Source of the DNA: Candidatus Iainarchaeum sp.
Lineage (GTDB): Archaea > B1Sed10-29 > WALL01
Assembly: GCA_021162685.1 (NCBI GenBank)
Contig: JAGGYF010000042.1
Location: forward strand, 1-34,177
Direction: 5' to 3'
Length of the DNA: 34,177 bases
Position numbers and translations under genes: made by a program. The notes beneath the pieces are model-generated. The model worked only from the letters and a program-made list of their open reading frames with translations, was not told the DNA's origin and searched no databases. Below are positions 1,552 to 20,976 of the stretch, in pieces (position 1 is the stretch's first letter; every line of letters begins with the position of its first letter).

Positions 1552-3687
1552 ATGAGAAGGGTTCTTATTGGCATAATGCTCATTATGGCGTTCTCAGTAG
1601 CGTTGGATATCCAGGATCCAAAGCTCGTAAGCTCTTTAAATGCAACTGTGGTTGATGCTGGCTCTATTCAGATACTAAATGGTAGGGCATATTCTATTGA
1701 TTTGAACATTACGATTCCGCAAAACACGGAGTTCCAGGTTGCTAGGTATGATGGAAGAATTGTTAGGGATGAGGAAGGGAATGAACTGGCAAATATATAT
1801 GTTGTAAACCCTGACAATCCGTTTGAATATCGTTTGGTGACAAATGTTGAAACACGGACAAGGAAAGTGGGTTTATTACCAGAGGAGTATGATATACCCC
1901 CAGAGATATCTGAATATGTAGAATCAACAGAACACACGCAGAGCAGCAGTGATGAGATAAGGGCACTTGCTGAGGAGATAACTGCGAATTCCACAGATGA
2001 TTTTGAGAAGATTGCAAAGCTGGCTATATGGGTAAATCAATACATAACATATGACATAAGCATGGTTGGAGAGAAGAGGGACGCGCTCTGGGTTCTTCAC
2101 AATAGGAGAGGGGTTTGTATAGAGTATGCGACATTATTCTCAGCACTTGCTAGGTCATTGGGTTATCCCACGAGGTATGTTCTTGGTCAGACATATGGTG
2201 ATTATGGTTGGTTGGGGCATGCATGGGTTGAGGTTTACTTGGGCGATTGGGTAGCAGTTGATCCAACATGGTTGGAAGTAGGAAAACTTGACGCAACACA
2301 TATTGTATTTTACAGGTCAAGGGGAGTGAATGCAAATAGCAGGGTGCAAGCAAAGGTCACAGAAGGAGCGATGATGAAATGGAACAGACAGGAATTTACA
2401 GGCCAATCTATAAATGAGAGCAGGATATTTGTGAATGAGATATCCTATGATAAAAAAGGAGATTATGACCTTTTCATTGGTGCGAATAGTATAGGTGCTG
2501 GTGATAAAACCATTGTTATTTTGGAGTATAACGGAGAAGAATACACTATCGCTGATGCAACACTTGTTCCGTGCAAAGCATCTTTTCCTGTTGTGTACAT
2601 AGAGGATGAGGAGAAAAAGGCAATCGTTGAGCCAAATAAGAGGATAGTTTTGGCATGGGTTGTTCAGGCTTCAGATAATCTTCAAAAGAATGTGTTGTAC
2701 TCATGCCCTTTAACGCTTAACTCACGTGTTTTGAAGAACAAATCTATTGTTTTGACTATGAGCGAAAAATCAGAAGAGCCAGACATAGATGTTACATTAA
2801 GTAGGAGGGTTGTTGGGCTGGGTGAACCTGTTAGGGTGTATGTAAAAACCAGTGAGAGTGATGTTGGTGTAGGTATTGTAACGAGTGAGGCATACGAACT
2901 CAGAAATATTGGGGGGAGGGAAACAGTATTTTCTGTTAATTTCTCCCGTCCAGGTGAGCAAACTATATATGTATTTACATCAAAGGGAGGCGTTGCAAAG
3001 AGAATAGTATCTGTGGTGCAGGAAAAACCACATGCTTACGTTTCCTCTGTTGATGTTCATGAAAAGATCCTAAAAGGGAGGAGCATTGGATTGAATGTTT
3101 CTATAGAGAGTGAAGGAAAACTTGATGCAAATCTCTTTGTTTCTTTAGGAAACTATAAGACTGCAAGAAAGGTTGTCATAAGTGGAGAGCAGACCTTTAT
3201 GTTTGAGATTCCTCCTCAGGAGGAGGGAGAGCATATACTAACTGTCATATTGAGAGGAGAAGGTATCTATGATGAGCAGCATATTCCTGTCCTCATATAT
3301 TCACGTCCTATTATTGCGGTCTCTAGTATATCGTTCAAAAGGATAGATGGAAAAATCAGGAGCGTTATTGAGTTCTATAGGAAAGGACCAGCACAGAACG
3401 TAACAGTAACTATTGGAAATCAAACAATTGAACTTCAGGATGATACATTAGAAATTGTTTTGGAACCAGGACAGTATTTTGTTGTGATGAAATGGATGGA
3501 TCCAGCTGGAAACCATTATTCTGCAGCAGCGTTTTTAGGAGTACCAGCGTTAGAGGAAGAGAAAGAAAGAGAGCTCTCGTTTGCAAATCTGTTCGCGTTT
3601 CTTATTATTGTTGTTATGGTTGCAATCTTTGTTCTGATTAGTGTGCTTACAATATCTGCTATCACTCTACTCAGAAAAGGCTCATAG
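1552..3687 (+). CDS. Secreted, C-terminally anchored transglutaminase-like (papain-fold) surface protein
   Basis: Signal peptide; catalytic motifs GVCIEYA, HAWVE and DPTW; beta-rich (Ig-like) middle region; C-terminal hydrophobic helix with a basic tail. Confidence 0.88.
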   Translation: MRRVLIGIMLIMAFSVALDIQDPKLVSSLNATVVDAGSIQILNGRAYSIDLNITIPQNTEFQVARYDGRIVRDEEGNELANIYVVNPDNPFEYRLVTNVETRTRKVGLLPEEYDIPPEISEYVESTEHTQSSSDEIRALAEEITANSTDDFEKIAKLAIWVNQYITYDISMVGEKRDALWVLHNRRGVCIEYATLFSALARSLGYPTRYVLGQTYGDYGWLGHAWVEVYLGDWVAVDPTWLEVGKLDATHIVFYRSRGVNANSRVQAKVTEGAMMKWNRQEFTGQSINESRIFVNEISYDKKGDYDLFIGANSIGAGDKTIVILEYNGEEYTIADATLVPCKASFPVVYIEDEEKKAIVEPNKRIVLAWVVQASDNLQKNVLYSCPLTLNSRVLKNKSIVLTMSEKSEEPDIDVTLSRRVVGLGEPVRVYVKTSESDVGVGIVTSEAYELRNIGGRETVFSVNFSRPGEQTIYVFTSKGGVAKRIVSVVQEKPHAYVSSVDVHEKILKGRSIGLNVSIESEGKLDANLFVSLGNYKTARKVVISGEQTFMFEIPPQEEGEHILTVILRGEGIYDEQHIPVLIYSRPIIAVSSISFKRIDGKIRSVIEFYRKGPAQNVTVTIGNQTIELQDDTLEIVLEPGQYFVVMKWMDPAGNHYSAAAFLGVPALEEEKERELSFANLFAFLIIVVMVAIFVLISVLTISAITLLRKGS

Positions 3688-7831: not shown

Positions 7832-8926
7832 ATGGATAGAAAGCTAATCCGCATAGTGCTATTACTTCTTGCTATATACCTCTTTCTTCTCTCAATAAAG
7901 CTCATGGGCTCTGGTTTTAAGGCATTGGGTACAGAATTCGCAAAAAGCGTGATCGCGACGACCTCAAATCCGATTGTTGGATTGTTTATAGGTATCCTGG
8001 TTACCACGGTTGTGCAGTCATCCTCATGCACCACATCATTAGTTGTTGCGCTTGTTGGAAGCGGAGCTATGACTATAGCAAATGCTATACCTATTATCAT
8101 GGGAGCGAATATGGGGACAACTGTCACAAATACAATTGTTTCCTTTGGGCACATCACACGGAGAACAGAGTTTCAAAAAGCATTTGGTGGTGCAGTTGTA
8201 CATGATATCTTCAACCTTCTTTCTGTTCTTGTGTTACTTCCATTAGAGATGGTTTTACATCCAATACAAACGATATCAACTATGCTCGCAGATGCGTTCT
8301 ATGGTATAGGTGGTTTTACATTTACAAGTCCACTGCATGTGATAATTGACCCAGCAAAACATTATGTTATTGCTATATTAGAATCTATTTTTGGGAATAA
8401 TCCTGTAGCCATTATTGTGTTTGCATTAGCACTTTTGTTTCTTTCCTTAAAGATTATTGTGGACTCCATGCGTTCTGTTGTACTCAGTGAAATTGAGACA
8501 CTTATTGATTCATTTCTCTTCAGGAATGGGTGGACAGGGTTTTTTACTGGTTTGTTCTTTACAGCAGTTGTCCAATCAAGTTCTGTTACAACATCCATTG
8601 TCATACCGCTAATAGGGGCAGGCCTACTTTCTATTGAGAAGGTATTTCCTTATGTTCTAGGCGCAAATGTTGGAACAACAATAACGGCAATTCTTGCAGC
8701 ATTAGCGATCTCAGGACCAACAGCAAAAGCAGCAATAACCACTGCATTTGCCCATCTTACCTTTAATCTGCTTGGTATTGCGTTATGGTATCCTCTACGA
8801 AGAGTACCAATCGCATTGGCAAAAAGGCTTTCTGGAATTATTCTTATATCAAGAAAATATGCAATTGCATATGTACTAACAGTATTCTATTTAATACCCA
8901 TTGCATTAGTATTTATACTAAGGTGA
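7832..8926 (+). CDS. Na+/phosphate cotransporter (NptA/SLC34 family)
   Basis: Two repeats of QSSS..TS and GAN(M/V)GTT; polytopic membrane protein. Confidence 0.93.
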   Translation: MDRKLIRIVLLLLAIYLFLLSIKLMGSGFKALGTEFAKSVIATTSNPIVGLFIGILVTTVVQSSSCTTSLVVALVGSGAMTIANAIPIIMGANMGTTVTNTIVSFGHITRRTEFQKAFGGAVVHDIFNLLSVLVLLPLEMVLHPIQTISTMLADAFYGIGGFTFTSPLHVIIDPAKHYVIAILESIFGNNPVAIIVFALALLFLSLKIIVDSMRSVVLSEIETLIDSFLFRNGWTGFFTGLFFTAVVQSSSVTTSIVIPLIGAGLLSIEKVFPYVLGANVGTTITAILAALAISGPTAKAAITTAFAHLTFNLLGIALWYPLRRVPIALAKRLSGIILISRKYAIAYVLTVFYLIPIALVFILR

Positions 8927-8931
8927 GAGAG

Positions 8932-9606
8932 ATGGTGTTTAAGGAGATATATGATGTTTGGACCAAAGAGGTTTTGTTGAGGAAGGCATTTGAGAAAACA
9001 TTGAAGATGATGGATAAGGATAAGGAAGCGTTTTCTCTGGCGTATAATGCTCTTATCAAAAACATAGATGAGCATATTGAAAAGGTTGTTAAGGATGAGG
9101 ATAGGGTAGATAAGTATATGCAGGATGTGCGAAGAGAGATACTAGAATACCTTGCTGTTAATTCTGCCCCGGATGTTGCCGCATCTCTCATACTCACTAC
9201 TGTGATTATATCATTGGAGAGGATAGGGGACTACTCAGAGGACATGACAAAACTAGCAGTGAGGTATCCAAAGAAGGTGAGTGAAAAGAAATACCTTGAA
9301 GCATTTGATTCAATATACGAGCGCATTATCAAGCTGTTTGATATGACGAAAAAGGCATTTGCCGATTCTGATGAAGAGGTCGCAAAAGAGGCCATCGCAT
9401 TATATATGAGCATAAAGAAGGACTGTAACACCCTTTATGATAAATTGGAAAAAGAGAAGAGGATGGAACCTAGAACAGCTATGATCTATGCTTTATTGAC
9501 AAGGTACTTGCAGAGGGTTGGAGCCCATTTGAATAACATAAATACCACAGTGGTAAATCCCTTCCCGCTTGCTGGGTCAAAGAAGGCGGTTAAAAGGGTT
9601 GAGTGA
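8932..9606 (+). CDS. phoU: PhoU-family phosphate uptake regulator
   Basis: EDRVD, LERIGDY and YLQRVGAH motifs. Start at 8932 follows the SD AGGTGA; in an operon with the Na/Pi symporter. Confidence 0.88.
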   Translation: MVFKEIYDVWTKEVLLRKAFEKTLKMMDKDKEAFSLAYNALIKNIDEHIEKVVKDEDRVDKYMQDVRREILEYLAVNSAPDVAASLILTTVIISLERIGDYSEDMTKLAVRYPKKVSEKKYLEAFDSIYERIIKLFDMTKKAFADSDEEVAKEAIALYMSIKKDCNTLYDKLEKEKRMEPRTAMIYALLTRYLQRVGAHLNNINTTVVNPFPLAGSKKAVKRVE

Positions 9607-9608
9607 AA

Positions 9609-10550
9609 CTAAACAACCTTAGCTCCATCAGCAAGTTTATAAGGAGTAGGAGATATCCTGTATTCTTCAAAAGCTAAAATAACGTCCTCTCTGTCTTTAG
9701 AGCGACATGCAACCACAATTTGACTACCCCCTCCCATGGTATAGTATGCATCAACGCCGCTTGTTCGGAGGTCTGTTACAATATCACATACTCGTTTTAC
9801 CTCTTCATTTCTTATGTCTATTCCTTGGCTCAAAAGAAGAGCATATGCTTCATCTATGTCTTCTTGTGCAACCCTAAATGCCCCCATAAAATCCTTTTTT
9901 ATTATCCTTCTCTCAATTTTATGGCATCTTTTATTGCAGTTGCTTACTCTCTCTTCAAACTGTGGTGAGGCAAGCATTGCTCTATGTATCTTTTCTGACT
10001 CAATCCTAGCCTTTTCAAATGAAAAACCAAACAAGGATACACCTACCAATTCTTTTGGATTTAAAAGTTGTTTCCCTCCTACTTCTGGATATTGCGAAAC
10101 ATCTATCTTGCTTATCCCGCCCAACAAACTTCGTGGGGATGAAGCAGACGCATTGATAATTATAGACACCTTCTCATTAATTGTCAGATTTAATTCAAAA
10201 AGATCGTCCAGTGCCTGTATAAGTGCAGCAGCCCCAGATGCAGAACTCCCACTTTTTATGTTATAGTTTCTAGATTGTATACGAACTCCAGAGTTACCAA
10301 CAATTTTCAATACAGTGTGCACTATACGCAACATTGGTTTTGCCTTTTCCCCACTTATCTCACTATCATTAACATAAAACTTGGTTCCGGTCTTTGAAAG
10401 TGTGGCCTCTGTTACTGTTTTCATATTCTCATCCAAGGTAGTAACTGCCATACCTATTGTATTGTGGTAAGGCGATCTATCGCCCCTTAACCCAGCCAAA
10501 AATATTAGGGGTACTGCAGGATATGCTTCAGAAACTGCTTTTGACTTCAT
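9609..10550 (-). CDS. Mevalonate-3-kinase-family paralog (GHMP/MDD fold), substrate uncertain
   Basis: AYPAVPLIFLAG, KSGSSASGAAA, SASSPRSLLGG, YTMGGGSQ. Visibly paralogous to 11377-12384. ATGA overlap with the upstream gene. Confidence 0.8.
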   Translation of the reverse strand: MKSKAVSEAYPAVPLIFLAGLRGDRSPYHNTIGMAVTTLDENMKTVTEATLSKTGTKFYVNDSEISGEKAKPMLRIVHTVLKIVGNSGVRIQSRNYNIKSGSSASGAAALIQALDDLFELNLTINEKVSIIINASASSPRSLLGGISKIDVSQYPEVGGKQLLNPKELVGVSLFGFSFEKARIESEKIHRAMLASPQFEERVSNCNKRCHKIERRIIKKDFMGAFRVAQEDIDEAYALLLSQGIDIRNEEVKRVCDIVTDLRTSGVDAYYTMGGGSQIVVACRSKDREDVILAFEEYRISPTPYKLADGAKVV

Positions 10551-11368
10551 TTTTCTCCCACCAGCTTGGCTACCCTATCCATTATAACATCAAGAGCCTG
10601 TTCAAGTGTTTGGTGGAAATCCTCATTTTTTATTATGGGTATATCCCACTCTTTTGCTTTTTCCAATAATCTATCCTGCATTATCCTGTATTTATCAAGT
10701 TGGTTTATAAGTCGTTGAGGGTCGCTCTTTATGTGCGCAAATTCGTTTCTGGATAGGATCCTCTCCTTGTGCTTTTCTATATCGTCTATGTGCAACACCA
10801 TTGGTATAATATTCCTTTTTTTCAATATGTCACTCTCAAAAGTATGAGGCAAGAAATGGAGATATTCAATAACCATATTTTCCCCATCGCGTACACACCT
10901 CTCCATGAGTTTACCCATACATTTGTTCATAATTCGCGATTGTTCCTCATATCCTTTTATGATTGAGTCTTTTGTGGGTTTATCGCTAAAATACTGCCAT
11001 GTATTATACACACTTGTAAATAGAACAGGATGTTCCTCCTTTTTAAGAATCCCACGCAGAAATTCACGAAGAGCATCTCCTCCCATCATCACCCTTATTC
11101 CTAAACTTTTCGCGATTTCTGATGCAAGTGTTGTTTTGCCAGTTCCTGGTAACCCAGCAACAACTATTACCAACGGCTCTTTCAGTTCCCCTGAAATTGT
11201 TTTTTCTAGATATTTTCTCCATATCTTATATCTCCTAACATACTGCGGCCCAAACCTCCCTAACTCCTTCACTATTTTTTCGTGGGGTTCGCCAATAAGA
11301 TGTTTTATCCTTTCAATTGGCAGTCCAGATGCCCTTACTGCCTCTTTTGTTATATCTATGCCTGGCAT
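10547..11368 (-). CDS. 2-phosphoglycerate-kinase-family P-loop kinase; probable mevalonate-3-phosphate 5-kinase
   Basis: GLPGTGKT, DALREFLR, VIEYLH, YRIMQDRL. The family includes Thermoplasma M3P5K, and the gene sits between two M3K-like genes. Confidence 0.78.
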   Translation of the reverse strand: MPGIDITKEAVRASGLPIERIKHLIGEPHEKIVKELGRFGPQYVRRYKIWRKYLEKTISGELKEPLVIVVAGLPGTGKTTLASEIAKSLGIRVMMGGDALREFLRGILKKEEHPVLFTSVYNTWQYFSDKPTKDSIIKGYEEQSRIMNKCMGKLMERCVRDGENMVIEYLHFLPHTFESDILKKRNIIPMVLHIDDIEKHKERILSRNEFAHIKSDPQRLINQLDKYRIMQDRLLEKAKEWDIPIIKNEDFHQTLEQALDVIMDRVAKLVGEK

Positions 11369-11376
11369 ATGGTCAC

Positions 11377-12384
11377 CTATATCCTCCTGACAACGCGGGG
11401 TGAGGGCGCTACTTTACATTCCCTAAAGGAATAGTTGTTTCTCTCTAGGAAATTTCTTATGTGGTCGGCGTGGTCTTTGTGTACTAATATAGATATTTGA
11501 TTTCCACCCCCTGCTGTTGGTACTGCTATTACTCCTCTCTCCTTAGCAATCTTCTTCACATCTTCCCATAGCTCCCGCATTGGGCCTTTTCTTACAACTA
11601 ACCCTCTATCCTCCAATAACTCATGTGCATTTTCAACATCTTCAAGGATTAGGTCAAACATGCGTTTTATGTTCCCTTCTTTGAATGCCTTTTTGATTTC
11701 TAACACCCTCCTTGGTGTTTCCCTCATCCTTATCTTATAATCGGGATGTTTTACTATTTCTTGATGGATCTCATCCGCAGTTATCCTTGTCTTGAACAGA
11801 GGAGATTCATTTTTATATTTTGGTTCTCCTTCCGGTGCATTGAATGGAACAAGAAAAATACGTATGTCCTTTAAATCTTCATGTGATGCAACAGGTATGC
11901 CCCTCACTTCAGGATAGTTATCCACATTTGTTTCACTCAACCCACCTAATAAACTTCTTTGAACAGACTCGGAACCCATCTTCCCATACTTTATCTTTTC
12001 TTCCTTGCTCATGTTTAACCCAAATAGCTCATCAATAGCAGTAACAAGAGCAGCAACACCAGAGTCAGATGAACCGCTTTTTATGTTATGGTTTACAGAT
12101 TCAATTCTAACACCAGACCTTATGCCTTTTTCTGAGAGTATCCTCTTAACCATATTTTTTATATCTTCGCCACGTTTTCCACTGATTTCTTTCCCATTTA
12201 CAAACAGATGAATGCCCTCTTCTTCAGGTAATTGCTTGGCCTTTGTAACTGTCTTCATATCCTCTTCGAGGGTAGTGATTGCCAACCCCATGGAATTGAG
12301 CCTTGGTGCCCTATCCTCTCGTATTCCCCCCAAAAACACAACAGGTATAGTTGGGAACGCTTCTACCTCAACTTCGTTGTACAT
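11377..12384 (-). CDS. Mevalonate 3-kinase (Thermoplasma Ta1305-like)
   Basis: AFPTIPVVFLGG, SGSSDSG, SESVQRSLLGG and R.....IH match the recalled Ta1305 motifs (AYPTIGVVLLGG, SGSSDAG, SESAGRSLFGG). It lacks the decarboxylase Lys and Asp. Confidence 0.85.
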   Translation of the reverse strand: MYNEVEVEAFPTIPVVFLGGIREDRAPRLNSMGLAITTLEEDMKTVTKAKQLPEEEGIHLFVNGKEISGKRGEDIKNMVKRILSEKGIRSGVRIESVNHNIKSGSSDSGVAALVTAIDELFGLNMSKEEKIKYGKMGSESVQRSLLGGLSETNVDNYPEVRGIPVASHEDLKDIRIFLVPFNAPEGEPKYKNESPLFKTRITADEIHQEIVKHPDYKIRMRETPRRVLEIKKAFKEGNIKRMFDLILEDVENAHELLEDRGLVVRKGPMRELWEDVKKIAKERGVIAVPTAGGGNQISILVHKDHADHIRNFLERNNYSFRECKVAPSPRVVRRI

Positions 12385-12512
12385 AACTAATCCCCCTATC
12401 GTTAACCATAACCTTTATAAATGATTTTAAATAAAAACTTTACACCTATTTTTGCAGATAAATAGGTCTGGAGGTGAAGTCATGGAAACAGAAGCTACAG
12501 GAGGGGAGGGCG

Positions 12513-12851
12513 ATGGCAATCGGCGTCCACATACTTGCAGAGTTCTACGAGTGCAATCCAGACCTACTGGCTACGGTGGATCCTGTTAGAGAGATTCTTG
12601 AGAGCACTGTAGAAGAGGCAAAGCTGAGTAAACTCCATTCGCACTATCATCAGTTTGAGCCATACGGAGTTACAGGTTTTGTTTTACTCGCAGAATCTCA
12701 TATCAGTATACACACCTGGCCAGAGCACGGGTATTGCGCAGTAGATGTTTTCACATGCGGAGAAGAAGGAGACGCCGAACTTGCCTATAAGCTCCTTAAA
12801 GAGAAACTTAAACCAGGGAGAGTTAATAGAGAGAAAAAGGTAAGAGGATGA
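12513..12851 (+). CDS. speD: S-adenosylmethionine decarboxylase proenzyme (pyruvoyl-dependent, prokaryotic type)
   Basis: GVHILAEFYEC, LAE^SHISIHTWPE, VDVFTCG. GGAGG lies 8 nt upstream of ATG 12513. Confidence 0.93.
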   Translation: MAIGVHILAEFYECNPDLLATVDPVREILESTVEEAKLSKLHSHYHQFEPYGVTGFVLLAESHISIHTWPEHGYCAVDVFTCGEEGDAELAYKLLKEKLKPGRVNREKKVRG

Positions 12852-13210
12852 GAACAGTAGGCCTTATAGAGCCAGTAGTTGTAGTAGGCAAGAAAAGGAT
12901 AAAGGTACTTGGTAAGTTTGACACTGGAGCATTCAGAACAAGTATTGATGAAAAAGTCGCAAAGAAGGCAGGGTTCAGAGCGGTTGGAAAAGTGAAAACG
13001 AAAAGCGCATTATCCAAAGGAAGGAGAAGAAAATTAGTAAAAGCAAAGATACAGATAGGTAACAAAATATTTGATGTTGAGGCAAGTGTAAGCAAGAGAG
13101 AGCATTCTATTGCAAAAGTGCTTATTGGTAGGGACATACTCTTCAAGAACTTTGTTGTTGATGTTTCAAAAAGACATTCAAGTCCAAAAGAAAGGGACTT
13201 TAAGATTTAG
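12848..13210 (+). CDS. RimK-associated retropepsin-like protease (RimB / RimK-LysX-associated family)
   Basis: VGLIEPV, KFDTGAFRTSID, VLIGRDIL..FVVD. ATGA overlap with speD. Confidence 0.85.
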   Translation: MRTVGLIEPVVVVGKKRIKVLGKFDTGAFRTSIDEKVAKKAGFRAVGKVKTKSALSKGRRRKLVKAKIQIGNKIFDVEASVSKREHSIAKVLIGRDILFKNFVVDVSKRHSSPKERDFKI

Positions 13211-14078
13211 CGCGCTCATAGATAAATTTCATTACAGTGTCATAAAGGTCTAATTTTGCAACCGTGCTTATGCCCTTAAGGCTCGGTCCATCGTTGATCT
13301 CAATCAGCACTGGTCCTCTCTCACTTGGTATAATATCTACGCCACATACTTCCATACCTATGGTGCTTGCTGCCTTTATCGCAATTTCTTCTTCTTCTGG
13401 TGTTGGTTTTAATGGTTCTGGTTTCCCACCTATTGTTATATTCGTTCTGAATTCCCCTTCTTTTACTGCCTTTCTCTTCATAGCAGCTGCAACTTGTTCC
13501 CCAACGACGAATAGTCTGTGGTCTTCACCAGGGTTTTTTATAAATTCTTCAACAGTAACAATTTGTTTTAATCTTGACATTGCATCTATGATGGGAGCAA
13601 AATCGCTTTGTGATGAAACCAACATGACACCCTTTCCTCCCATACCTCCTAAAAGTTTCACTACTACTGGAAATTCAAAATCTTTAACTACATCTTCAAC
13701 AACCTTCGGAGAGGTAACTAAAACAGCTTTTGGTGTTGGTAGTCCTGCTTCTGACATTACCTTTAATGTGTAAAATTTGTTTTTGGCTATGGTTATTGCG
13801 TCTGCCTGCACAGGGGAGTAAACCCCAGAATCAGCGAGCATGTCCATAATGATTGGAGCATAATCTATATCAGGAGAGGATGAACGAGGGTATGCTGCAT
13901 CAAACTCACATAGGTTGTAGTTTTTGTAGACTACTCTATTGTTTCCTTTATCTACTACTGCTCTTATCTCTGGGAATGGGGCTTGTACGCATTCTTTAAA
14001 GTATTTTTTTCCAGCATCTATTATCTTCTGGTTCACTTCCTTGTATGTTCTTGAACCTGAAAGTAGAACAAATCTCAT
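13200..14078 (-). CDS. RimK-family ATP-grasp amino-acid (glutamate) ligase
   Basis: AKNKFYT, PVVVKLLGGMGGKGV, EEFI...EDHRLFVVG, FRTNITIGG, GVDI, IEINDGP. Start at 14078 forms an ATGA overlap with the upstream gene. Confidence 0.92.
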   Translation of the reverse strand: MRFVLLSGSRTYKEVNQKIIDAGKKYFKECVQAPFPEIRAVVDKGNNRVVYKNYNLCEFDAAYPRSSSPDIDYAPIIMDMLADSGVYSPVQADAITIAKNKFYTLKVMSEAGLPTPKAVLVTSPKVVEDVVKDFEFPVVVKLLGGMGGKGVMLVSSQSDFAPIIDAMSRLKQIVTVEEFIKNPGEDHRLFVVGEQVAAAMKRKAVKEGEFRTNITIGGKPEPLKPTPEEEEIAIKAASTIGMEVCGVDIIPSERGPVLIEINDGPSLKGISTVAKLDLYDTVMKFIYERAKS

Positions 14079-15556
14079 GGCTTCCACAACCTTTCTATTC
14101 TTTCTGTTTCTGCTGCTCGGTATTCATCTAAAAACTCTCTTAGGTATTCTGGGAATACATCCTTCACGCGCTTTGATTCTCTGAATATCTGTTTCAATTT
14201 TCTTTCTAGTCCCTTGCTAATCTTTTTGTAGTGGATGGGGTCTGAGTAGTATAATTTATTCTTAATACGCCAGTAGGCTTTTGTTCCACGTGGTGCGTAT
14301 ACTACATAACCTCTCTCTTCTCCTTCAAATGGGCCCATTGCTCTTTCCATGTCCTTGTAGTTTACCAGATAAACACCGCCCGTTTCTTTATTTGGGTCTA
14401 TGATAAGCAATTCGTCACCCTCCACACCCACGCACAATACAGCATGTTTTTGGTCCCTCTTTACTCCTGGGAAGAGTGCAGCTTTGTAAAAGTTCAGTAC
14501 AACAAGTCCACCCTCAGAGAGCCATGCCCTAACCTCATCTCTGAGATTTATAATCTCTTTGTATGGAACAAAAATACCTGCGACATTGCCCTTTGTTAAC
14601 TTATCTACTGCCTTTATTGCATTGGATACTGTTGTTCCACCAGGAACTTTTGTTTTTGCCTCTTTTGCAATTGTCTTTTGTCCGCCTTCTATGTGGAATC
14701 CGAACAGGTCTAAGATCATGTTAAGAACTGCCGGAACGCAATACGATTTTTCTTGGGCAACATAATGCCTGCGCATTGATTCCATTGTTTTGATGTCAAA
14801 TCTTGACTTTTTTATTCGCACTTCTTTTTCTACGATCTTTGCATTTGGTATGGAGATGTAATATCCTCTGCCCGTGTCTATGATTACAGACGTTGATGAT
14901 ATGTCTATAACCTCCCCATCTGCATCATCAACAAAGATACGCTGCCCAAGCTTTACAAGTTTTGAGCTTTTTATGTAGAAACCAGCAAGCCAGTTCCTCG
15001 TAATGTCCTTTGATGCAAAGAAGATAAGGGCAACCACAAGGAATGCAAACCCATAACTTATTGCTGACAAAGAACTTTCAACAACACTCTTTGGTATTCC
15101 GAGTTGAGCAAGTGATATCTGTATTACAATGATGTATAAAAAGAGACGAAGGCCCATGAGTACGAAGTTTACAACTGGCTCATCTATGCCCATACCTTTG
15201 AGGTAAATCTGGAATTTCATTCCCCTGAATGTTACTGTTAAGATTTCCATGATGAGATTAACAATCATTGTTCCGAGGATTAGTATAAGCAACGTTGATA
15301 GGAGTATGGGAGCATAATTGCTCAAACTCGCAAGTAGTCTTTCTGTTATACCTGGGTCTAAAAAGAAAACCGCGATGAAAATTGTTGCTACGAATAGTAG
15401 GTATTCAATGGTTTTGACGAGTATCTTTGCCATGCCTGGCTTTTTTGTTATGGGCGAGCAAGCAATGGAAAATAATCGGACAATTGTAACTCCAACTAAT
15501 AGGATTAAGACTACTTCAAATGCCTTCAGTATTGCTGGAGGAACATACTCTATCAT
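14075..15556 (-). CDS. MscS-like membrane protein fused to a C-terminal C39-like cysteine peptidase
   Basis: About 5 TM helices, then KDITRNWLAG..GQRIFV..GEVIDI..IPNAKI (MscS TM3 and beta domain). This is followed by Q268-EKSY-C273, GGTT, H371-AVL and D387-P. Confidence 0.85.
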   Translation of the reverse strand: MIEYVPPAILKAFEVVLILLVGVTIVRLFSIACSPITKKPGMAKILVKTIEYLLFVATIFIAVFFLDPGITERLLASLSNYAPILLSTLLILILGTMIVNLIMEILTVTFRGMKFQIYLKGMGIDEPVVNFVLMGLRLFLYIIVIQISLAQLGIPKSVVESSLSAISYGFAFLVVALIFFASKDITRNWLAGFYIKSSKLVKLGQRIFVDDADGEVIDISSTSVIIDTGRGYYISIPNAKIVEKEVRIKKSRFDIKTMESMRRHYVAQEKSYCVPAVLNMILDLFGFHIEGGQKTIAKEAKTKVPGGTTVSNAIKAVDKLTKGNVAGIFVPYKEIINLRDEVRAWLSEGGLVVLNFYKAALFPGVKRDQKHAVLCVGVEGDELLIIDPNKETGGVYLVNYKDMERAMGPFEGEERGYVVYAPRGTKAYWRIKNKLYYSDPIHYKKISKGLERKLKQIFRESKRVKDVFPEYLREFLDEYRAAETERIERLWKP

Positions 15557-16362: not shown

Positions 16363-18999
16363 ATGGATGATGCAGTATACTGGCATGCAGTTGATATCAA
16401 GACAATATTCAAGTTGTTGAAGACATCAGAGAAGGGCTTAACTTCTGAAGAGGTAAAGAGGAGAAGAAAGGAGTATGGAGAGAATGAGATAACACTCAAG
16501 GAGAATATATCTGCGCTTAAACTCTTTCTTAATCAATTCTCCAGCCCCCTTGTAATAACACTAATTATTGCTGCTGCAGTTCTTATTATCGTATCATTGA
16601 TGTCAAATGATTCGTCGCAATTAATTGATGCCTCGCTGATTATCTTTATTGTTCTTGCCAATAGTGTGTTTGGTTTTTTCCAGGATTACAAAGCAGAAAA
16701 GAGTATGCTAGCGCTTAGGAAGATGACAAAAGTGAACGTTATTGTCGTTAGGGATGGAGTAGAACAAATTGTAGATGCAAAAGAACTTGTCCCTGGTGAC
16801 ATTATTATTGTAGAAGAGGGTTCAAAGATTCCTGCTGATGCCAGAATTATAGGAGTAGAGGACGCATATGTTAATGAGTCTGTGTTAACTGGGGAGAGTA
16901 CGAAGGTGAGAAAGGAGCCATGCGTTCTTCCCATGAATACGCCACTTCATGCTAGAAAAAACATGTTGTTCATGACAACAACAGTTACAATGGGAAGTGC
17001 AACCGCTGTCGTTGTTGGAACAGGAATAAATACAGAAGTAGGAAGGATTGCAAAGCAGATACACGAGACAGAACAGGAATCAACAATTTTCCAGGTTCAG
17101 TTGGAATCACTAAGTAAGAGTATTGGGAGTTTCATTTTAGGAATTATTGTATTTATTGCTCTTGTGCAGGCATTTGTGCACGCGTTTGACCTAAAAACAA
17201 TCTTTTTAACATCGGTTGCATTAGCAGTAGCAGCAATACCAGAAGGACTTCCTGCAGTTGTTACTCTCTCGCTTGCTTATGGAACATCAAAGATGGTAAA
17301 AAAGAATGCACTTGTAAGGAGACTTGCAATCATTGAGAGTTTAGGTTCTGTTGATGTCATATGTACAGATAAAACTGGGACTTTAACGGAAAACAAGATG
17401 ACTGTGAAAAAGATATATTTTGACAATAAGATGTATGATGTTACTGGTTCTGGCCTTGATGAACAAGGAGAGTTTATTTCTGATGGAAAAATAAGAAAAA
17501 GGGAGTTGTACCCTATTTTGCTTACTGGTGTATTGTGTAACAATGCACACGTAGGAAAGAAATATTTTGGAGAACCATTAGAGGTTGCACTTCTTATTGC
17601 AGGAAAAAAGGCAGGGATAGATAAAAAAGAGGTTGAGAAGAAGTATAAACACATAAAGGAGATCCCATTCAATTCAGAAAGAAAACGCATGACAGTTATC
17701 TATTTAATTGATGGAAAGAAGATGGCATTTATGAAGGGTGCACCCGAGGTTGTGCTTCAACATTGTACATACGTATATGAAAACGGAAAAAATAGAAAAC
17801 TTAGTAAAAAGAGAAAAAAAGAGCTTTTGAGTGTTTCACGAGAACTGGAAGCGCAGGGCTTTTATGTATTGGGATTTGCACAAAAAGAACTCAACAGGCA
17901 ATCGGATGCAGAATCAAACATGGTATTCTTAGGCTTCCAGGGCATGATTGATCCTCCGAGGCCAGAGGTAAAGGAAGCTATTGCGGCATGTGAAACAGCA
18001 GGTATCAGAGTTATAATGATTACAGGAGATAGCCCCCTTACTGCAAAGAACATAGCAAAACAGGTTGGTATTGGTACTGAGGTGATGATAGGGGAAGAGG
18101 TTGATAAAATAACAGATAAGGAACTGGAGAATGCTGTTGAAACTATTGATATCTTTGCCAGAGTTTCACCACATCACAAAGTAAGAATACTCAACGCGCT
18201 TAGGGCAAATGAACATGTTATTGCTATGACTGGAGATGGGGTGAATGACGCTCCTGCTCTGAAGAGCGCAGATGTTGGAATTGCTATGGGGGTACGTGGA
18301 ACAGATGTAGCGAGAGAAGCCAGCGATATGATCCTACTAGATGATAACTTTGCGACAATTGCAGAGGCAATAAAAGAAGGGAGAACAATATACGGAAACA
18401 TAAAAAAATTCATAAACTATTTGCTAACATCAAACTTTGCAGAAGTATTTGCGATATTTATCGCATCTCTCTTTGCTTACCTTCCAGTAACAGCAGTTCA
18501 GCTTTTATGGATAAACTTTGTTACAGATGGATTCCCCGCTGTTGCATTAGGAGCAGACCCACCTCCTCCCGATATTATGAAAAGAAAACCGAAGAAGAAG
18601 GACGAACACATCATTGACAGAAGGATGTGGTACTTGATTGCTTTGATCGGCGTAGAGAATACAATCCTCATTTTGAGTGTGTTCTTTATTGGATTGGGGA
18701 TGGGTGGTCTAAAGGTTGCCCAAACAATGGCATTCACTGGTTTTGTACTGTATGAATTTGTGAGAATAGTCGTGATAAGGACACAAGAAAAGTTGGGCAT
18801 GCTATCAAATCACTATTTAACATTGGCAATGATTATCTCAATAGGACTTCAATTTGTTTTGTTGTATTCTCCACTGAATAAACTCTTTGGGGTTGTTCCA
18901 TTGGGCATAGAAAACTGGGCAGTTTTGATAACAGGTACAATTATAGGTTATGTTTCTGCTATATTCATAACGAGATGGGTGATGAGGATGACTGCATGA
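16363..18999 (+). CDS. P-type cation-transporting ATPase (type IIA, Ca2+-like)
   Basis: TGES, IPEGLP, DKTGTLT, KGAPE, TGD, GDGVNDAPAL. Confidence 0.96.
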   Translation: MDDAVYWHAVDIKTIFKLLKTSEKGLTSEEVKRRRKEYGENEITLKENISALKLFLNQFSSPLVITLIIAAAVLIIVSLMSNDSSQLIDASLIIFIVLANSVFGFFQDYKAEKSMLALRKMTKVNVIVVRDGVEQIVDAKELVPGDIIIVEEGSKIPADARIIGVEDAYVNESVLTGESTKVRKEPCVLPMNTPLHARKNMLFMTTTVTMGSATAVVVGTGINTEVGRIAKQIHETEQESTIFQVQLESLSKSIGSFILGIIVFIALVQAFVHAFDLKTIFLTSVALAVAAIPEGLPAVVTLSLAYGTSKMVKKNALVRRLAIIESLGSVDVICTDKTGTLTENKMTVKKIYFDNKMYDVTGSGLDEQGEFISDGKIRKRELYPILLTGVLCNNAHVGKKYFGEPLEVALLIAGKKAGIDKKEVEKKYKHIKEIPFNSERKRMTVIYLIDGKKMAFMKGAPEVVLQHCTYVYENGKNRKLSKKRKKELLSVSRELEAQGFYVLGFAQKELNRQSDAESNMVFLGFQGMIDPPRPEVKEAIAACETAGIRVIMITGDSPLTAKNIAKQVGIGTEVMIGEEVDKITDKELENAVETIDIFARVSPHHKVRILNALRANEHVIAMTGDGVNDAPALKSADVGIAMGVRGTDVAREASDMILLDDNFATIAEAIKEGRTIYGNIKKFINYLLTSNFAEVFAIFIASLFAYLPVTAVQLLWINFVTDGFPAVALGADPPPPDIMKRKPKKKDEHIIDRRMWYLIALIGVENTILILSVFFIGLGMGGLKVAQTMAFTGFVLYEFVRIVVIRTQEKLGMLSNHYLTLAMIISIGLQFVLLYSPLNKLFGVVPLGIENWAVLITGTIIGYVSAIFITRWVMRMTA

Positions 19000-19023
19000 T
19001 GAACTCAACATAAACTTTTATAA

Positions 19024-19185
19024 ATGTTCTTTCCCAGATCTTCCACTCATTTTTCAGAAATAATTGAAGCAAAGAGCCTAGAAGAAGCAATAGAAAAGAC
19101 AGATATGAACCTAGAATTAAATGTCGTGATACCTCTGAATAATGAGAACATTGAACATCTTAGGAAGTTGATTATTCAGGAATAG
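19024..19185 (+). CDS. Small hypothetical protein, 53 aa (below ORF-track cutoff)
   Basis: MFFPRSSTHFSEIIEAKSLEEAIEKTDMNLELNVVIPLNNENIEHLRKLIIQE* fills the intergenic gap. Confidence 0.45.
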   Translation: MFFPRSSTHFSEIIEAKSLEEAIEKTDMNLELNVVIPLNNENIEHLRKLIIQE

Positions 19186-19233
19186 ATGATTGCATAAGCA
19201 ATGTTTTTAAATCAATGGTTCGTTATGTTTTCT

Positions 19234-20976
19234 ATGGAGCAGGTAGCAGAACTCTTTTTGGAATTGGGCTTGATTCTTGGTACGGCAAGTGTTCTTGCAT
19301 ATATAATGAGAAGGTTCAAGCAGCCAACTATCCTTTCATATATACTCACGGGCGTTATATTTGGCCCAAGTGTGCTGAATGTAATTGGCGCTCATGAATT
19401 TATAAAGGTATTCTCTGAGTTTGGTGTTGCTTTCCTGTTGTTTACTGTTGGTCTGCAGTTGAGTATAAGGGACCTAAAGGAGGTTGGAAAAGTAGCGTTT
19501 CTTACAGGTATAGGCCAGGTTTTGTTCACATTTACAATTGCATTCCTGGGTTTAAACGTACTTGGTTTTGATTGGAAAGCTGCTGTGTACATCGCAATTG
19601 CGCTTTCTTTCAGTAGCACAATTATTGTTGTGAAACTTTTATCAGAAAAGAACGATATTAGCTCTTTATATGGAAAGATTGCAATTGGTTTTCTGCTTGT
19701 CCAGGACTTTATTGCTATATTTGCACTTATCTTTTTGACAGGTGTTGCGCAACAGCAACCAGTTGGCGTGATTATTATAAACACAATCGTAAAGACCGTC
19801 TTTTTGATTGGAGCAATTGCTTTGTTTACGAAGTATATCCTGCACAGGTTGTTTGATAGGATTGCAAGGTGGCACGAACTTCTTTTCATATCAAGTTTGG
19901 GGCTTTGTTTTCTTCTTGCTTATATCACGCATTATTTCGGGTTATCATTGGAAATAGGTTCTTTCCTTGCTGGTGTTTCCCTTGCTACATTAAAATATAA
20001 TATAGACATTGTTGGAAGGATAAAATCTGTCAGAGATTTTTTTATCATCATATTTTTTGTGCTGCTCGGTCTTCAATTGCATATCTCTCTTTCTGATATC
20101 CCACTTGTTATTATCCTCTCACTTTTTGTGCTGATTGGCAATCCATTTATTGTGATGAGCATCATGAGTTTAATGGGGTATAGTACAAGAACAAGTTTAT
20201 TTGCAGGATTTACTGTATCTCAGATAAGCGAATTCTCTCTTATTGTCGCAGCAATGGGTCTTTCTTTAGGGCATATAAGCGAACCAACTGTATCAATCAT
20301 AACCATGGTTGCGCTCGTAACAATAACTGTATCGGTTTACTTTATCCAGTTTAATGAGTATATATATGGGAGAATAGGGAAATTTTTGAAATTTTTGGAG
20401 CGTAAGAAACTCGTTGAACATAGGTCAAGATTACCAAAAGAACTGAGGAATCATGTTGTTCTCTTTGGACATCATCGGATGGGGCACACCATATCAAAAA
20501 AATTGGATGAGTTGGGATACACAATAGTTATTGTGGATTTTGATCCGGATGTCATATCATCCCTACTGAAAAAGGGAAAGAACTGCATGTATGGTGATAT
20601 GAGCGACCCAGAAGTTTTAGAAAAGGTTAATCTGAAGGATGCAAAACTCATTATCTCTACTGTTCCATCAAAAAACGATAATCTTGTTTTACTCCATAAT
20701 GTAAAAGAAGTAGGAAGCAAGGCAATCATTATTGTGACAGCAGAGCAGTTGTTGGACGCCATTGAATTATATAGAGCAGGCGCAGACTACGTGATTATGC
20801 CTCATTTCATAGGAGGAGAGCATGTAAGCTTATTATTGAATAAATTGGTTAAGAATAAAAAATGGAGAGAGGCAGCAAAACAAAAACACATCCTACAATT
20901 GTTGGAACATAGGAGGCGGGGACACGAATTTAACGTCAAAAATATTCAATGGGATCTTCTATCCCTGCTTCCCTGA
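19234..20976 (+). CDS. CPA2/KefB-type cation:proton antiporter with C-terminal TrkA-N (RCK) domain
   Basis: About 12 TM helices with [14 protein letters not shown] and QISEFS; [26 protein letters not shown]. Confidence 0.93.

Follow-up and report, generated by a model that had tools for sequence, protein, structure and literature searches.

A lineage-wide MscS-like/C39-like fusion protein tied to a RimK-type ligase in DPANN archaea, and a candidate membrane-anchored glutamyl-peptide module

Within a 34,177-nucleotide stretch of DNA from the DPANN archaeon Candidatus Iainarchaeum sp. (contig JAGGYF010000042.1 of assembly GCA_021162685.1; "the window" below always means this whole stretch) lie three overlapping genes, which encode a protein joining an MscS-like membrane part to a C39-like cysteine peptidase domain, a RimK-family ATP-grasp ligase and a RimB-like retropepsin (Table 1). 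We lean, with slightly better than even confidence, towards the view that the three genes work together as a membrane-anchored module for making and cutting glutamyl peptides, an archaeal counterpart of RimK/RimB and RloABC. MscS-family channels are known as passive safety valves and C39 domains as parts of ATP-binding cassette (ABC) exporters, and a conserved, lineage-wide MscS/C39 fusion that is tied to RimK points to uncharted biology. It is the architecture (an MscS part plus a C39-like peptidase, linked to RimK) that is new; ligase/protease systems of the Rim/Rlo type are already known. Our literature searches, with the 2009 amidoligase survey by Iyer et al. lying outside their coverage, brought up no description of an MscS-peptidase fusion or of its linkage to RimK, and the fusion is not mentioned in the excerpts of PMC10318531, PMC11237513 and PMC11606122 (term searches) or in that of PMC10219603.

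Domain make-up of the fusion protein

The membrane part is recognised by its MscS beta-domain (MS_channel_2nd, PF00924; residues 184-246, E 1.1e-10, 41.9 bits against a cut-off of 20.2), which the search of the whole genome returned at the same coordinates with 45.5 bits, and by a weak match to the MscS conserved transmembrane helix (PF05552) at residues 73-115. Past residue 246 we found no Pfam family besides those of C39 type, Pfam detected no ABC domains in the protein, and NCBIfam holds no family for it. Basic residues are gathered in loops 33-44, 109-127 and 184-205, from which we infer by the positive-inside rule that the N-terminus lies outside and that everything past residue 184 is cytoplasmic. 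A model of the whole protein made with AlphaFold2 (AF2) from a 15-row alignment (predicted local distance difference test, pLDDT, 77.6) matches both MscS and papain-fold proteins. Against chains of E. coli MscS, Foldseek gave E-values of 7e-7 to 3e-6 over 205-211 columns, with template-modelling scores (TM-scores) of only 0.28-0.32 by target and root-mean-square deviations (rmsd) of 11-14 Å, so that the agreement holds for the pieces of MscS one by one and not for how the monomer model arranges them relative to one another.

The beta-domain and the preceding pore-helix region are thus held in common with E. coli MscS, whereas the fusion protein has five predicted helices instead of three. The preliminary description of this DNA had the usual C-terminal cage of MscS replaced by the peptidase; this is right for the alpha-beta domain and the C-terminal barrel, in whose place the peptidase domain and a C-terminal extension stand, but not for the beta-domain, itself part of the cage, which is kept. 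The host genome also encodes a second, conventional MscS-family protein on another contig (C12:8192-8392, L072; PF00924 at 77.3 bits within a 373-residue open frame), and the fusion protein can therefore be specialised and need not be the general valve of the cell.

Behind the beta-domain, the 493-residue frame bears the four residues of a C39-type active site, Q268, C273, H371 and D387, all present and in order, at the positions given in the preliminary description, and models support the fold assigned to them there. The window protein itself stays below the Pfam cut-offs for such domains (19.1 against 24 bits for PF13529, 16.3 against 22 for PF03412), and its assignment as a peptidase therefore rests on the fold and on homologues that do pass: those of locus L041 (24.6 bits), P0017 (31.0) and P0021 (49.7) exceed the PF13529 cut-off, and PF13529 is a precomputed annotation on 11 of the 16 proteins in our listing of homologues.

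The fold was examined in an AF2 model of residues 255-493 alone, built from a 52-row alignment (pLDDT 86; predicted TM-score 0.84). Superposition with VIA-align gave the highest Z-score to the pseudomurein endoisopeptidase PeiR (17.7), followed by the phytochelatin-synthase-like Alr0975 (15.3), the peptidase domain of ComA (15.3; 135 residues aligned, rmsd 2.0), PCAT1 (15.2), the LahT-type domain 6mpz (13.8) and the C39-like 3erv (12.8); catalytically inactive C39-like domains (3zua, 11.3; 3b79, 11.0), unrelated papain-fold enzymes (8-11) and the amide-forming CtaG, CcbD and AziU3/U2 (9.0-10.6) scored lower. The best Foldseek matches were acyl-enzyme structures of Alr0975, a primitive phytochelatin synthase (E 7e-7, TM-score 0.64 by target). 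PeiR and Alr0975 are thus the nearest solved folds of the domain, and the titles of their entries speak of action on pseudomurein isopeptide links and on glutathione, respectively; they differ from it in being soluble or phage-derived proteins with no channel, in sharing no sequence family with it and in being only 14-19% identical over the aligned parts.

All of these structural matches span model residues 1-175 (255-429 of the protein) and leave the last 64 residues uncovered. This extension, which is specific to the family and mostly helical, carries invariant residues of its own (W429/R430, Y437, Y443, K448, E451 and W491) and forms helices at 448-462 and 470-491 in the models. In most fusion proteins from outside Iainarchaeum, an acidic tail follows the conserved ...W-K-P end, at which the window protein stops, and in many of them (L022-L026, L028-L030, L034, L052, L060, L061, L063, L066, L068 and L069) the tail ends in a recurring motif, (L/I)(D/N)EF(T/I/V) with a D/S-rich stretch, that could be a docking or acceptor peptide. 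A complex prediction for the C-domain (alignment A2, described below) with the ligase (alignment A3) scored 0.00 in two runs that had no controls, a figure that is uninformative on binding.

Conservation was assessed in alignment A2, which holds the C-domains of the window protein and of 51 homologous loci (52 rows, the fragment L069 being left out). All four catalytic residues are kept in 41 of the 52 sequences, despite a divergence that reaches down to 31% identity, and most lineages, that of the window included, look catalytically competent.

Distribution of the fusion and its linkage to RimK

A word-indexed search returned 15 full-length homologues of 469-533 residues at 33-65% identity, and a scan of one genome per species located 52 fusion loci, in genomes titled Iainarchaeum, Micrarchaeota, Aenigmatarchaeota, Nanohaloarchaeota, Woesearchaeota and Asbonarchaeaceae. 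When the C-domain profile (A2) was run against 1.84 billion representative proteins, we obtained 199 matches at E<=1e-3, with 54 representative clusters at E<=1e-30. The fusion, which the preliminary description had put forward with the proviso that it might be a one-off or an artefact of assembly, is thus neither. Among the matches listed, those covering the whole profile are proteins of 436-544 residues with the domain at about 250-500, or shorter pieces, and their N-terminal part of 200-280 residues is MscS-like where checked. At E-values weaker than about 1e-9 the matches are mostly small stand-alone proteins of 140-340 residues, and seven weak matches that we scanned have C39/C39_2 domains, which in some cases are joined to unrelated domains. 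Judged by these sequences, the C-domain with its extension occurs essentially only behind an MscS-like membrane part. Two oddities were met on the way: in the 211-residue protein P0075 the extension (133-208) is preceded by an N-terminal part of another kind (residues 1-132), which starts with a hydrophobic, lipoprotein-like leader, and this is either a rare alternative fusion or a join made in assembly or gene calling, and locus L064, in a bin titled Colwellia polaris, carries the archaeal cassette on a contig that is probably mis-binned.

Linkage to RimK is strict. In 51 of the 52 loci the fusion gene has a RimK-type gene at most about 1.1 kb downstream (28-75% identity to the window ligase, E<=1e-39), and the remaining locus, L046, lies on a contig that breaks off about 820 bases past the fusion gene, inside an intervening gene, which is the paralogue that gives the weak "RimK" match there. 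In two woesearchaeotal loci, L047 and L050, the ligase is longer (357-364 residues), stands on the opposite strand and directly follows a retropepsin gene. Among 31 genomes of the class, that of the window included, the fusion is present in six and RimK in seven, and all six holders of the fusion have RimK. Homologues of the fusion are hence linked to RimK just as the locus in the window had led one to expect.

The overlaps that tie the three window genes together could be read directly from the sequence and agree with the preliminary description: the TGA of the fusion gene (14075-14077), which follows the codons of the ...W-K-P end, overlaps the ATG of the ligase at 14078, and the ligase converges on the gene of the intact DTGA protease with an overlap of 11 bases (the ligase stop ends at 13200 and the 120-residue open reading frame runs from 12848 to 13210). 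Translation of the ligase could also begin at an in-frame GTG at 14087, which would give 295 instead of 292 residues. The arrangement is not peculiar to the window, since fusion, RimK and retropepsin follow the same overlapping order in each of the five order-level relatives in which the fusion occurs; by comparison, none of eight other window proteins used as queries had a match nearer than about 6 kb to the fusion gene in these relatives.

In other lineages the module is larger. A gene of about 280 codons stands between the fusion gene and RimK in 45 of the 52 loci (for example L041:7475-8314) and encodes a divergent ATP-grasp paralogue that has lost the glycine-rich loop and has the equivalent of the Mg-binding Asp248 in 0 of 45 cases; it is probably inactive and is absent from the lineage of the window. 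A 344-residue P-loop protein is encoded convergently with RimK in 21 of the 52 loci (for example L041:9215-10249, minus strand, and L022:10040-11074, minus strand) and was not found in the genome of the window with that query; it gives only weak MobB matches in Pfam and NCBIfam, and in a language-model look-up it falls near DUF1611 clusters (score 0.98, with PF07755 on 11-16% of the members), which we take as a lead only. A further ATP-grasp gene of YheC/D type is present in 16 of the 52 loci. The window thus holds the minimal variant, consisting of the fusion, a live ligase and the retropepsin, with no dead paralogue.

The ligase and the retropepsin

The ligase is the single RimK-family gene of the host genome (1.11 Mb, 98.4% complete). 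It matches the Pfam RimK family (PF08443) with an E-value of 7.8e-42 and passes the RimK family model TIGR00768 (173.2 bits against a cut-off of 143.4), but remains below the equivalog cut-offs for RimK (NF007764, 149.5 against 331), MptN (142.5 against 350), LysX (132.6 against 275.6) and CofF (67.6 against 300). A profile of 50 fusion-linked ligases is closest to the solved RimK proteins of E. coli and Pseudomonas (E 1e-55 to 1e-52), with ArgX/LysX next at 1e-34 and weaker, and the catalytic ATP-grasp residues K141, D248, E260 and N262 are invariant in all 50.

The 120-residue retropepsin has a DTGA motif at residues 25-28 and an IGRD motif near residue 94. It passes PF05618 (Zn_protease, the RimB/RloA family) with 34.9 bits against a cut-off of 27, an alignment that takes in only profile positions 71-137, and lies far below the NCBIfam equivalog cut-offs for RimB (NF052261, 16.2 against 200) and RloA3 (NF052264, 28 against 210). 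By eye, its N-terminus, MRTVGLIEPVVVVGKKRIK, has no typical hydrophobic core and shows no obvious signal peptide. The description of this gene as a RimB-like partner is borne out by the family match and by its presence in all five order-level relatives. PADLOC matched none of the three module proteins, giving no sign of a known defence system.

Interpretation of the module

Glutamyl ligases and proteases that trim their products are known from bacteria. According to the excerpted text of PMC12239564, RimB binds RimK and trims its glutamate tails, RimB and RloA both cleave polyglutamate, and the rlo operon of P. aeruginosa encodes RloA, a secreted retropepsin that cuts runs of 8-10 glutamates, RloB, in which seven helices are joined to a transglutaminase domain that is inactive and faces the periplasm, and RloC, which belongs to the ATP-grasp proteins and shares 24% identity with RimK; the same excerpt states that losing the three RloA proteases is lethal in hypo-osmotic, salt-free medium and that deletion of rloB or rloC restores growth (PMC12239564). 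The archaeal module resembles RimK/RimB in that its ligase passes the RimK family model, its protease passes PF05618 with a DTGA motif, the two genes are adjacent and both products are predicted to be cytoplasmic. It differs in falling below the RimK and RimB equivalog cut-offs, in coming without bS6 or RimA, in its archaeal host, and in adding a membrane channel-peptidase fusion that is translationally coupled to the ligase. With RloABC it has in common an ATP-grasp ligase related to RimK, a retropepsin of the polyglutamate-cutting type and a polytopic membrane protein whose papain-superfamily domain is inactive in some cases, whereas the archaeal membrane part is MscS-like, its domain is C39-like, mostly intact and predicted to be cytoplasmic, and RloA is secreted. 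The likeness to RloB is one of architecture only, and the hypo-osmotic phenotype of the rlo mutants and the MscS scaffold of the archaeal protein point the same way by analogy.

In the module as we picture it, the RimK-type ligase would use ATP to make an alpha-linked oligopeptide of glutamate (an acidic peptide), which would be free or attached to a protein as a tail, and two cytoplasmic peptidases, the RimB-type retropepsin and the thiol peptidase at the inner end of the MscS-family protein, would cut this product. The MscS part would anchor the peptidase to the membrane, probably in a seven-membered ring, and may let the products (glutamate and short peptides) pass or may couple their turnover to membrane tension, so that the module would serve glutamate or osmotic homeostasis alongside the ordinary MscS of the cell. 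E. coli RimK is reportedly (Kino et al. 2011) able to make free poly-alpha-glutamate as well. A function shared by ligase and peptidase at the membrane, as the preliminary description had proposed, is well founded because the fusion is recurrent, RimK-linked and, in the lineage of the window, retropepsin-linked, and the pairing is echoed by RloABC.

Glutamate is the main cytoplasmic anion, and a polymer of it is osmotically quieter. A more specific scheme, to which we give only a small chance, would make the fusion protein a tension-coupled peptidase or valve that manages a polyglutamate reserve, in which glutamate is packed by the ligase and released by seven thiol peptidases under the pore, tension deciding whether the products leave. 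If true, such a valve would be the first enzyme built into a mechanosensitive channel, and would amount to a new kind of osmotic and amino-acid buffering in genome-reduced symbiotic archaea. The osmolyte store-and-release system and the tension-gated protease or glutamylation-regulated channel of the preliminary description are likewise hypotheses.

Several observations weigh against a glutamyl-peptide module of the Rim/Rlo kind. The retropepsin stands beside the fusion gene in only seven of the 52 loci (tblastn) in addition to the window, all in the Iainarchaeum/Micrarchaeota group but for two in Woesearchaeota, and PF05618 was not found in any of the five nanohaloarchaeal and aenigmatarchaeal genomes searched. 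The bacterial target of RimK, ribosomal protein bS6 (PF01250), was not found in the 98.4%-complete genome, although the same family was found in ten control bacteria. No Pfam match at E<=0.01 connects the fusion protein to the families of RloB (transglutaminase, seven-transmembrane). The last transmembrane helix of the fusion protein (residues 163-183, AFLVVALIFFA) contains many bulky hydrophobic side chains, whereas the pore helix TM3a of E. coli MscS is rich in glycine and alanine, and a pore is therefore not assured. In the seventh RimK holder of the class, G008 (66% complete), RimK is followed by a retropepsin gene and no fusion gene was found; this pair (L071, G008:C11, 4735-6011; 34% and 42% identical to the window ligase and retropepsin, overlapping and on the same strand) reads as a bacterial-style RimK/RimB pair in a DPANN archaeon of the same order, so that the fusion is not seen without RimK but RimK and retropepsin can stand alone, as they do in bacteria. 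Finally, the catalytic cysteine is gone in 11 of the 52 rows of A2, mostly together with the glutamine and the histidine, and the domain and its linkage to RimK are kept; catalysis is hence not always needed.

This last observation bears directly on the strongest of the alternatives, in which the C39-like domain is mainly a binding or regulatory part that senses the ligase product, docks the ligase or its dead paralogue, or is itself glutamylated, and in this way gates an MscS-type channel as a valve under the control of a ligand; inactive C39-like domains of some ABC exporters offer a parallel. Because the Cys-less minority, which likely keeps the domain as a non-enzyme, retains it along with the extension and the neighbouring RimK, the binding of a ligand or partner is probably part of what the domain does. 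W345, E379, D387, W429 and R430, invariant in 52 of 52 sequences, are better kept than the nucleophile, catalytically inactive C39-like domains (3zua and 3b79) are among the structural neighbours, and the acidic tails with their LDEF-type end recur in many lineages. Against a purely regulatory domain stand the window protein, with its full catalytic set, and the 41 sequences that keep all four catalytic residues at about 31-45% identity, a pattern that argues for selection for catalysis in most lineages; the 11 Cys-less rows all fall among the 12 least similar to the domain of the window (31-41% identity). We regard this alternative as possible but unlikely.

It is also conceivable that the papain-fold domain is a transpeptidase or amide-forming enzyme like phytochelatin synthase, which would take up the glutamyl peptide made by the ligase as an acyl-enzyme and hand it on to a lipid, a surface protein or a further peptide that serves as acceptor at the membrane, since the best Foldseek matches are Alr0975 acyl-enzymes and CtaG, CcbD and AziU3/U2 are found among the neighbours. 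Two or three ATP-grasp genes per cluster in other lineages would likewise suit a stepwise assembly of peptides, but the second of them is degenerate at the Asp248 position. C39 domains and PeiR score as well as Alr0975 or better (Z 15.2-17.7), fold likeness does not separate hydrolysis from transfer, and no acceptor was identified, which leaves this alternative, by our estimate, a slim one.

The preliminary description had also considered an ATP-grasp peptide pathway in which the channel takes the place of a peptidase-containing ABC exporter such as PCAT1, the C39 domain removing a double-glycine-type leader from an ATP-grasp-modified ribosomal peptide. A C39-type domain with its Gln/Cys/His/Asp set, fused on the cytoplasmic side to a membrane transport protein, is indeed the hallmark of PCAT1 and ComA, both of which superpose well on the domain. 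The archaeal domain, however, follows an MscS-type part instead of preceding an ABC exporter, the protein lacks an ATPase, and export through an MscS-type channel would have nothing to power it. The ligase that is conserved as its partner is a true RimK relative and not of the graspetide type, the overlapping gene set of the window leaves no room for a precursor gene and the module has none, and the cysteine is lost in the 11 sequences described above, all of which makes this scenario very improbable. To the idea that the genes are merely neighbours with no shared function, or that the fusion is an artefact of assembly or gene calling, we attach next to no weight, as it draws on just the general caution due to metagenome-assembled genomes, whereas the fusion is one uninterrupted frame in 52 independent species-level assemblies, RimK follows it in all but one of these, and the three genes stay together in the five relatives, where none of the eight other window proteins used as queries had a match near the fusion gene.

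If the favoured glutamyl-peptide module is real, the Rim/Rlo logic of a ligase, a trimming protease and a papain-superfamily membrane protein would seem to recur in archaea with different parts, and the archaeal module would help with the question of what the Rlo-type membrane component does. Because it is kept in DPANN genomes of about 1 Mb, which retain little that is dispensable, the module is a promising candidate for a role that matters to the symbiotic way of life. With both peptidases and a live ligase but no dead paralogue, the variant in the window offers the simplest set for reconstitution.

The locus and its surroundings

The coordinates of the module are collected in Table 1.

Table 1. 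Genes, domains and overlaps of the module in the window (positions of the forward strand)
Feature	Residues	Position	Strand	Basis
MscS-like/C39-like fusion gene, 493 residues		14075..15556	-	open reading frame including stop; homologues; AF2 model
Five predicted transmembrane helices, the last running into an MscS TM3b-type helix	1-183	15008..15556	-	hydropathy, AF2 model
MscS beta-domain	184-246	14819..15007	-	PF00924
Papain-fold C39/C39_2-like cysteine peptidase domain	255-429	14270..14794	-	fold, catalytic residues
Conserved, largely helical, basic C-terminal extension	430-493	14078..14269	-	invariant columns, model helices
ATGA overlap of fusion-gene stop and ligase start		14075..14078	-	read from sequence
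RimK-family ATP-grasp ligase, 292 residues		13200..14078	-	PF08443, TIGR00768
Retropepsin-like aspartic peptidase, 120 residues		12848..13210	+	PF05618, PF13975, PF13650

The start of the retropepsin gene adjoins a gene for a pyruvoyl-type S-adenosylmethionine decarboxylase (12474-12851, plus strand; PF02675, E 8.7e-39), and the two share an ATGA at 12848-12851, an overlap which suggests that they are co-translated in the window. The decarboxylase gene was not found near the module in any of the five relatives. Genes for ion and phosphate transport lie on the plus strand to either side of the module (7832-9606 and 16363-20976), namely a Na/Pi cotransporter with PhoU, a P-type cation ATPase and a Kef-type exchanger with a TrkA-N domain. 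We considered the transport genes (P-type ATPase and Kef-type antiporter) as members of the module and rejected them, as they were not found near it in the five relatives; a Kef-type match in just one of the 52 fusion loci also speaks against membership. A tRNA scan found no tRNA in the window. Another papain-superfamily protein of the window, 711 residues long and encoded at 1552-3687 (plus strand), has a transglutaminase core (PF01841, E 1.1e-27). Finally, the segment at 9609-12384 (minus strand) holds two paralogous GHMP-kinase-type genes with matches to the mevalonate-3-kinase C-domain (PF21433), which flank an overlapping gene for a P-loop kinase-like protein, and may represent part of a mevalonate pathway of Thermoplasma type in a DPANN archaeon.

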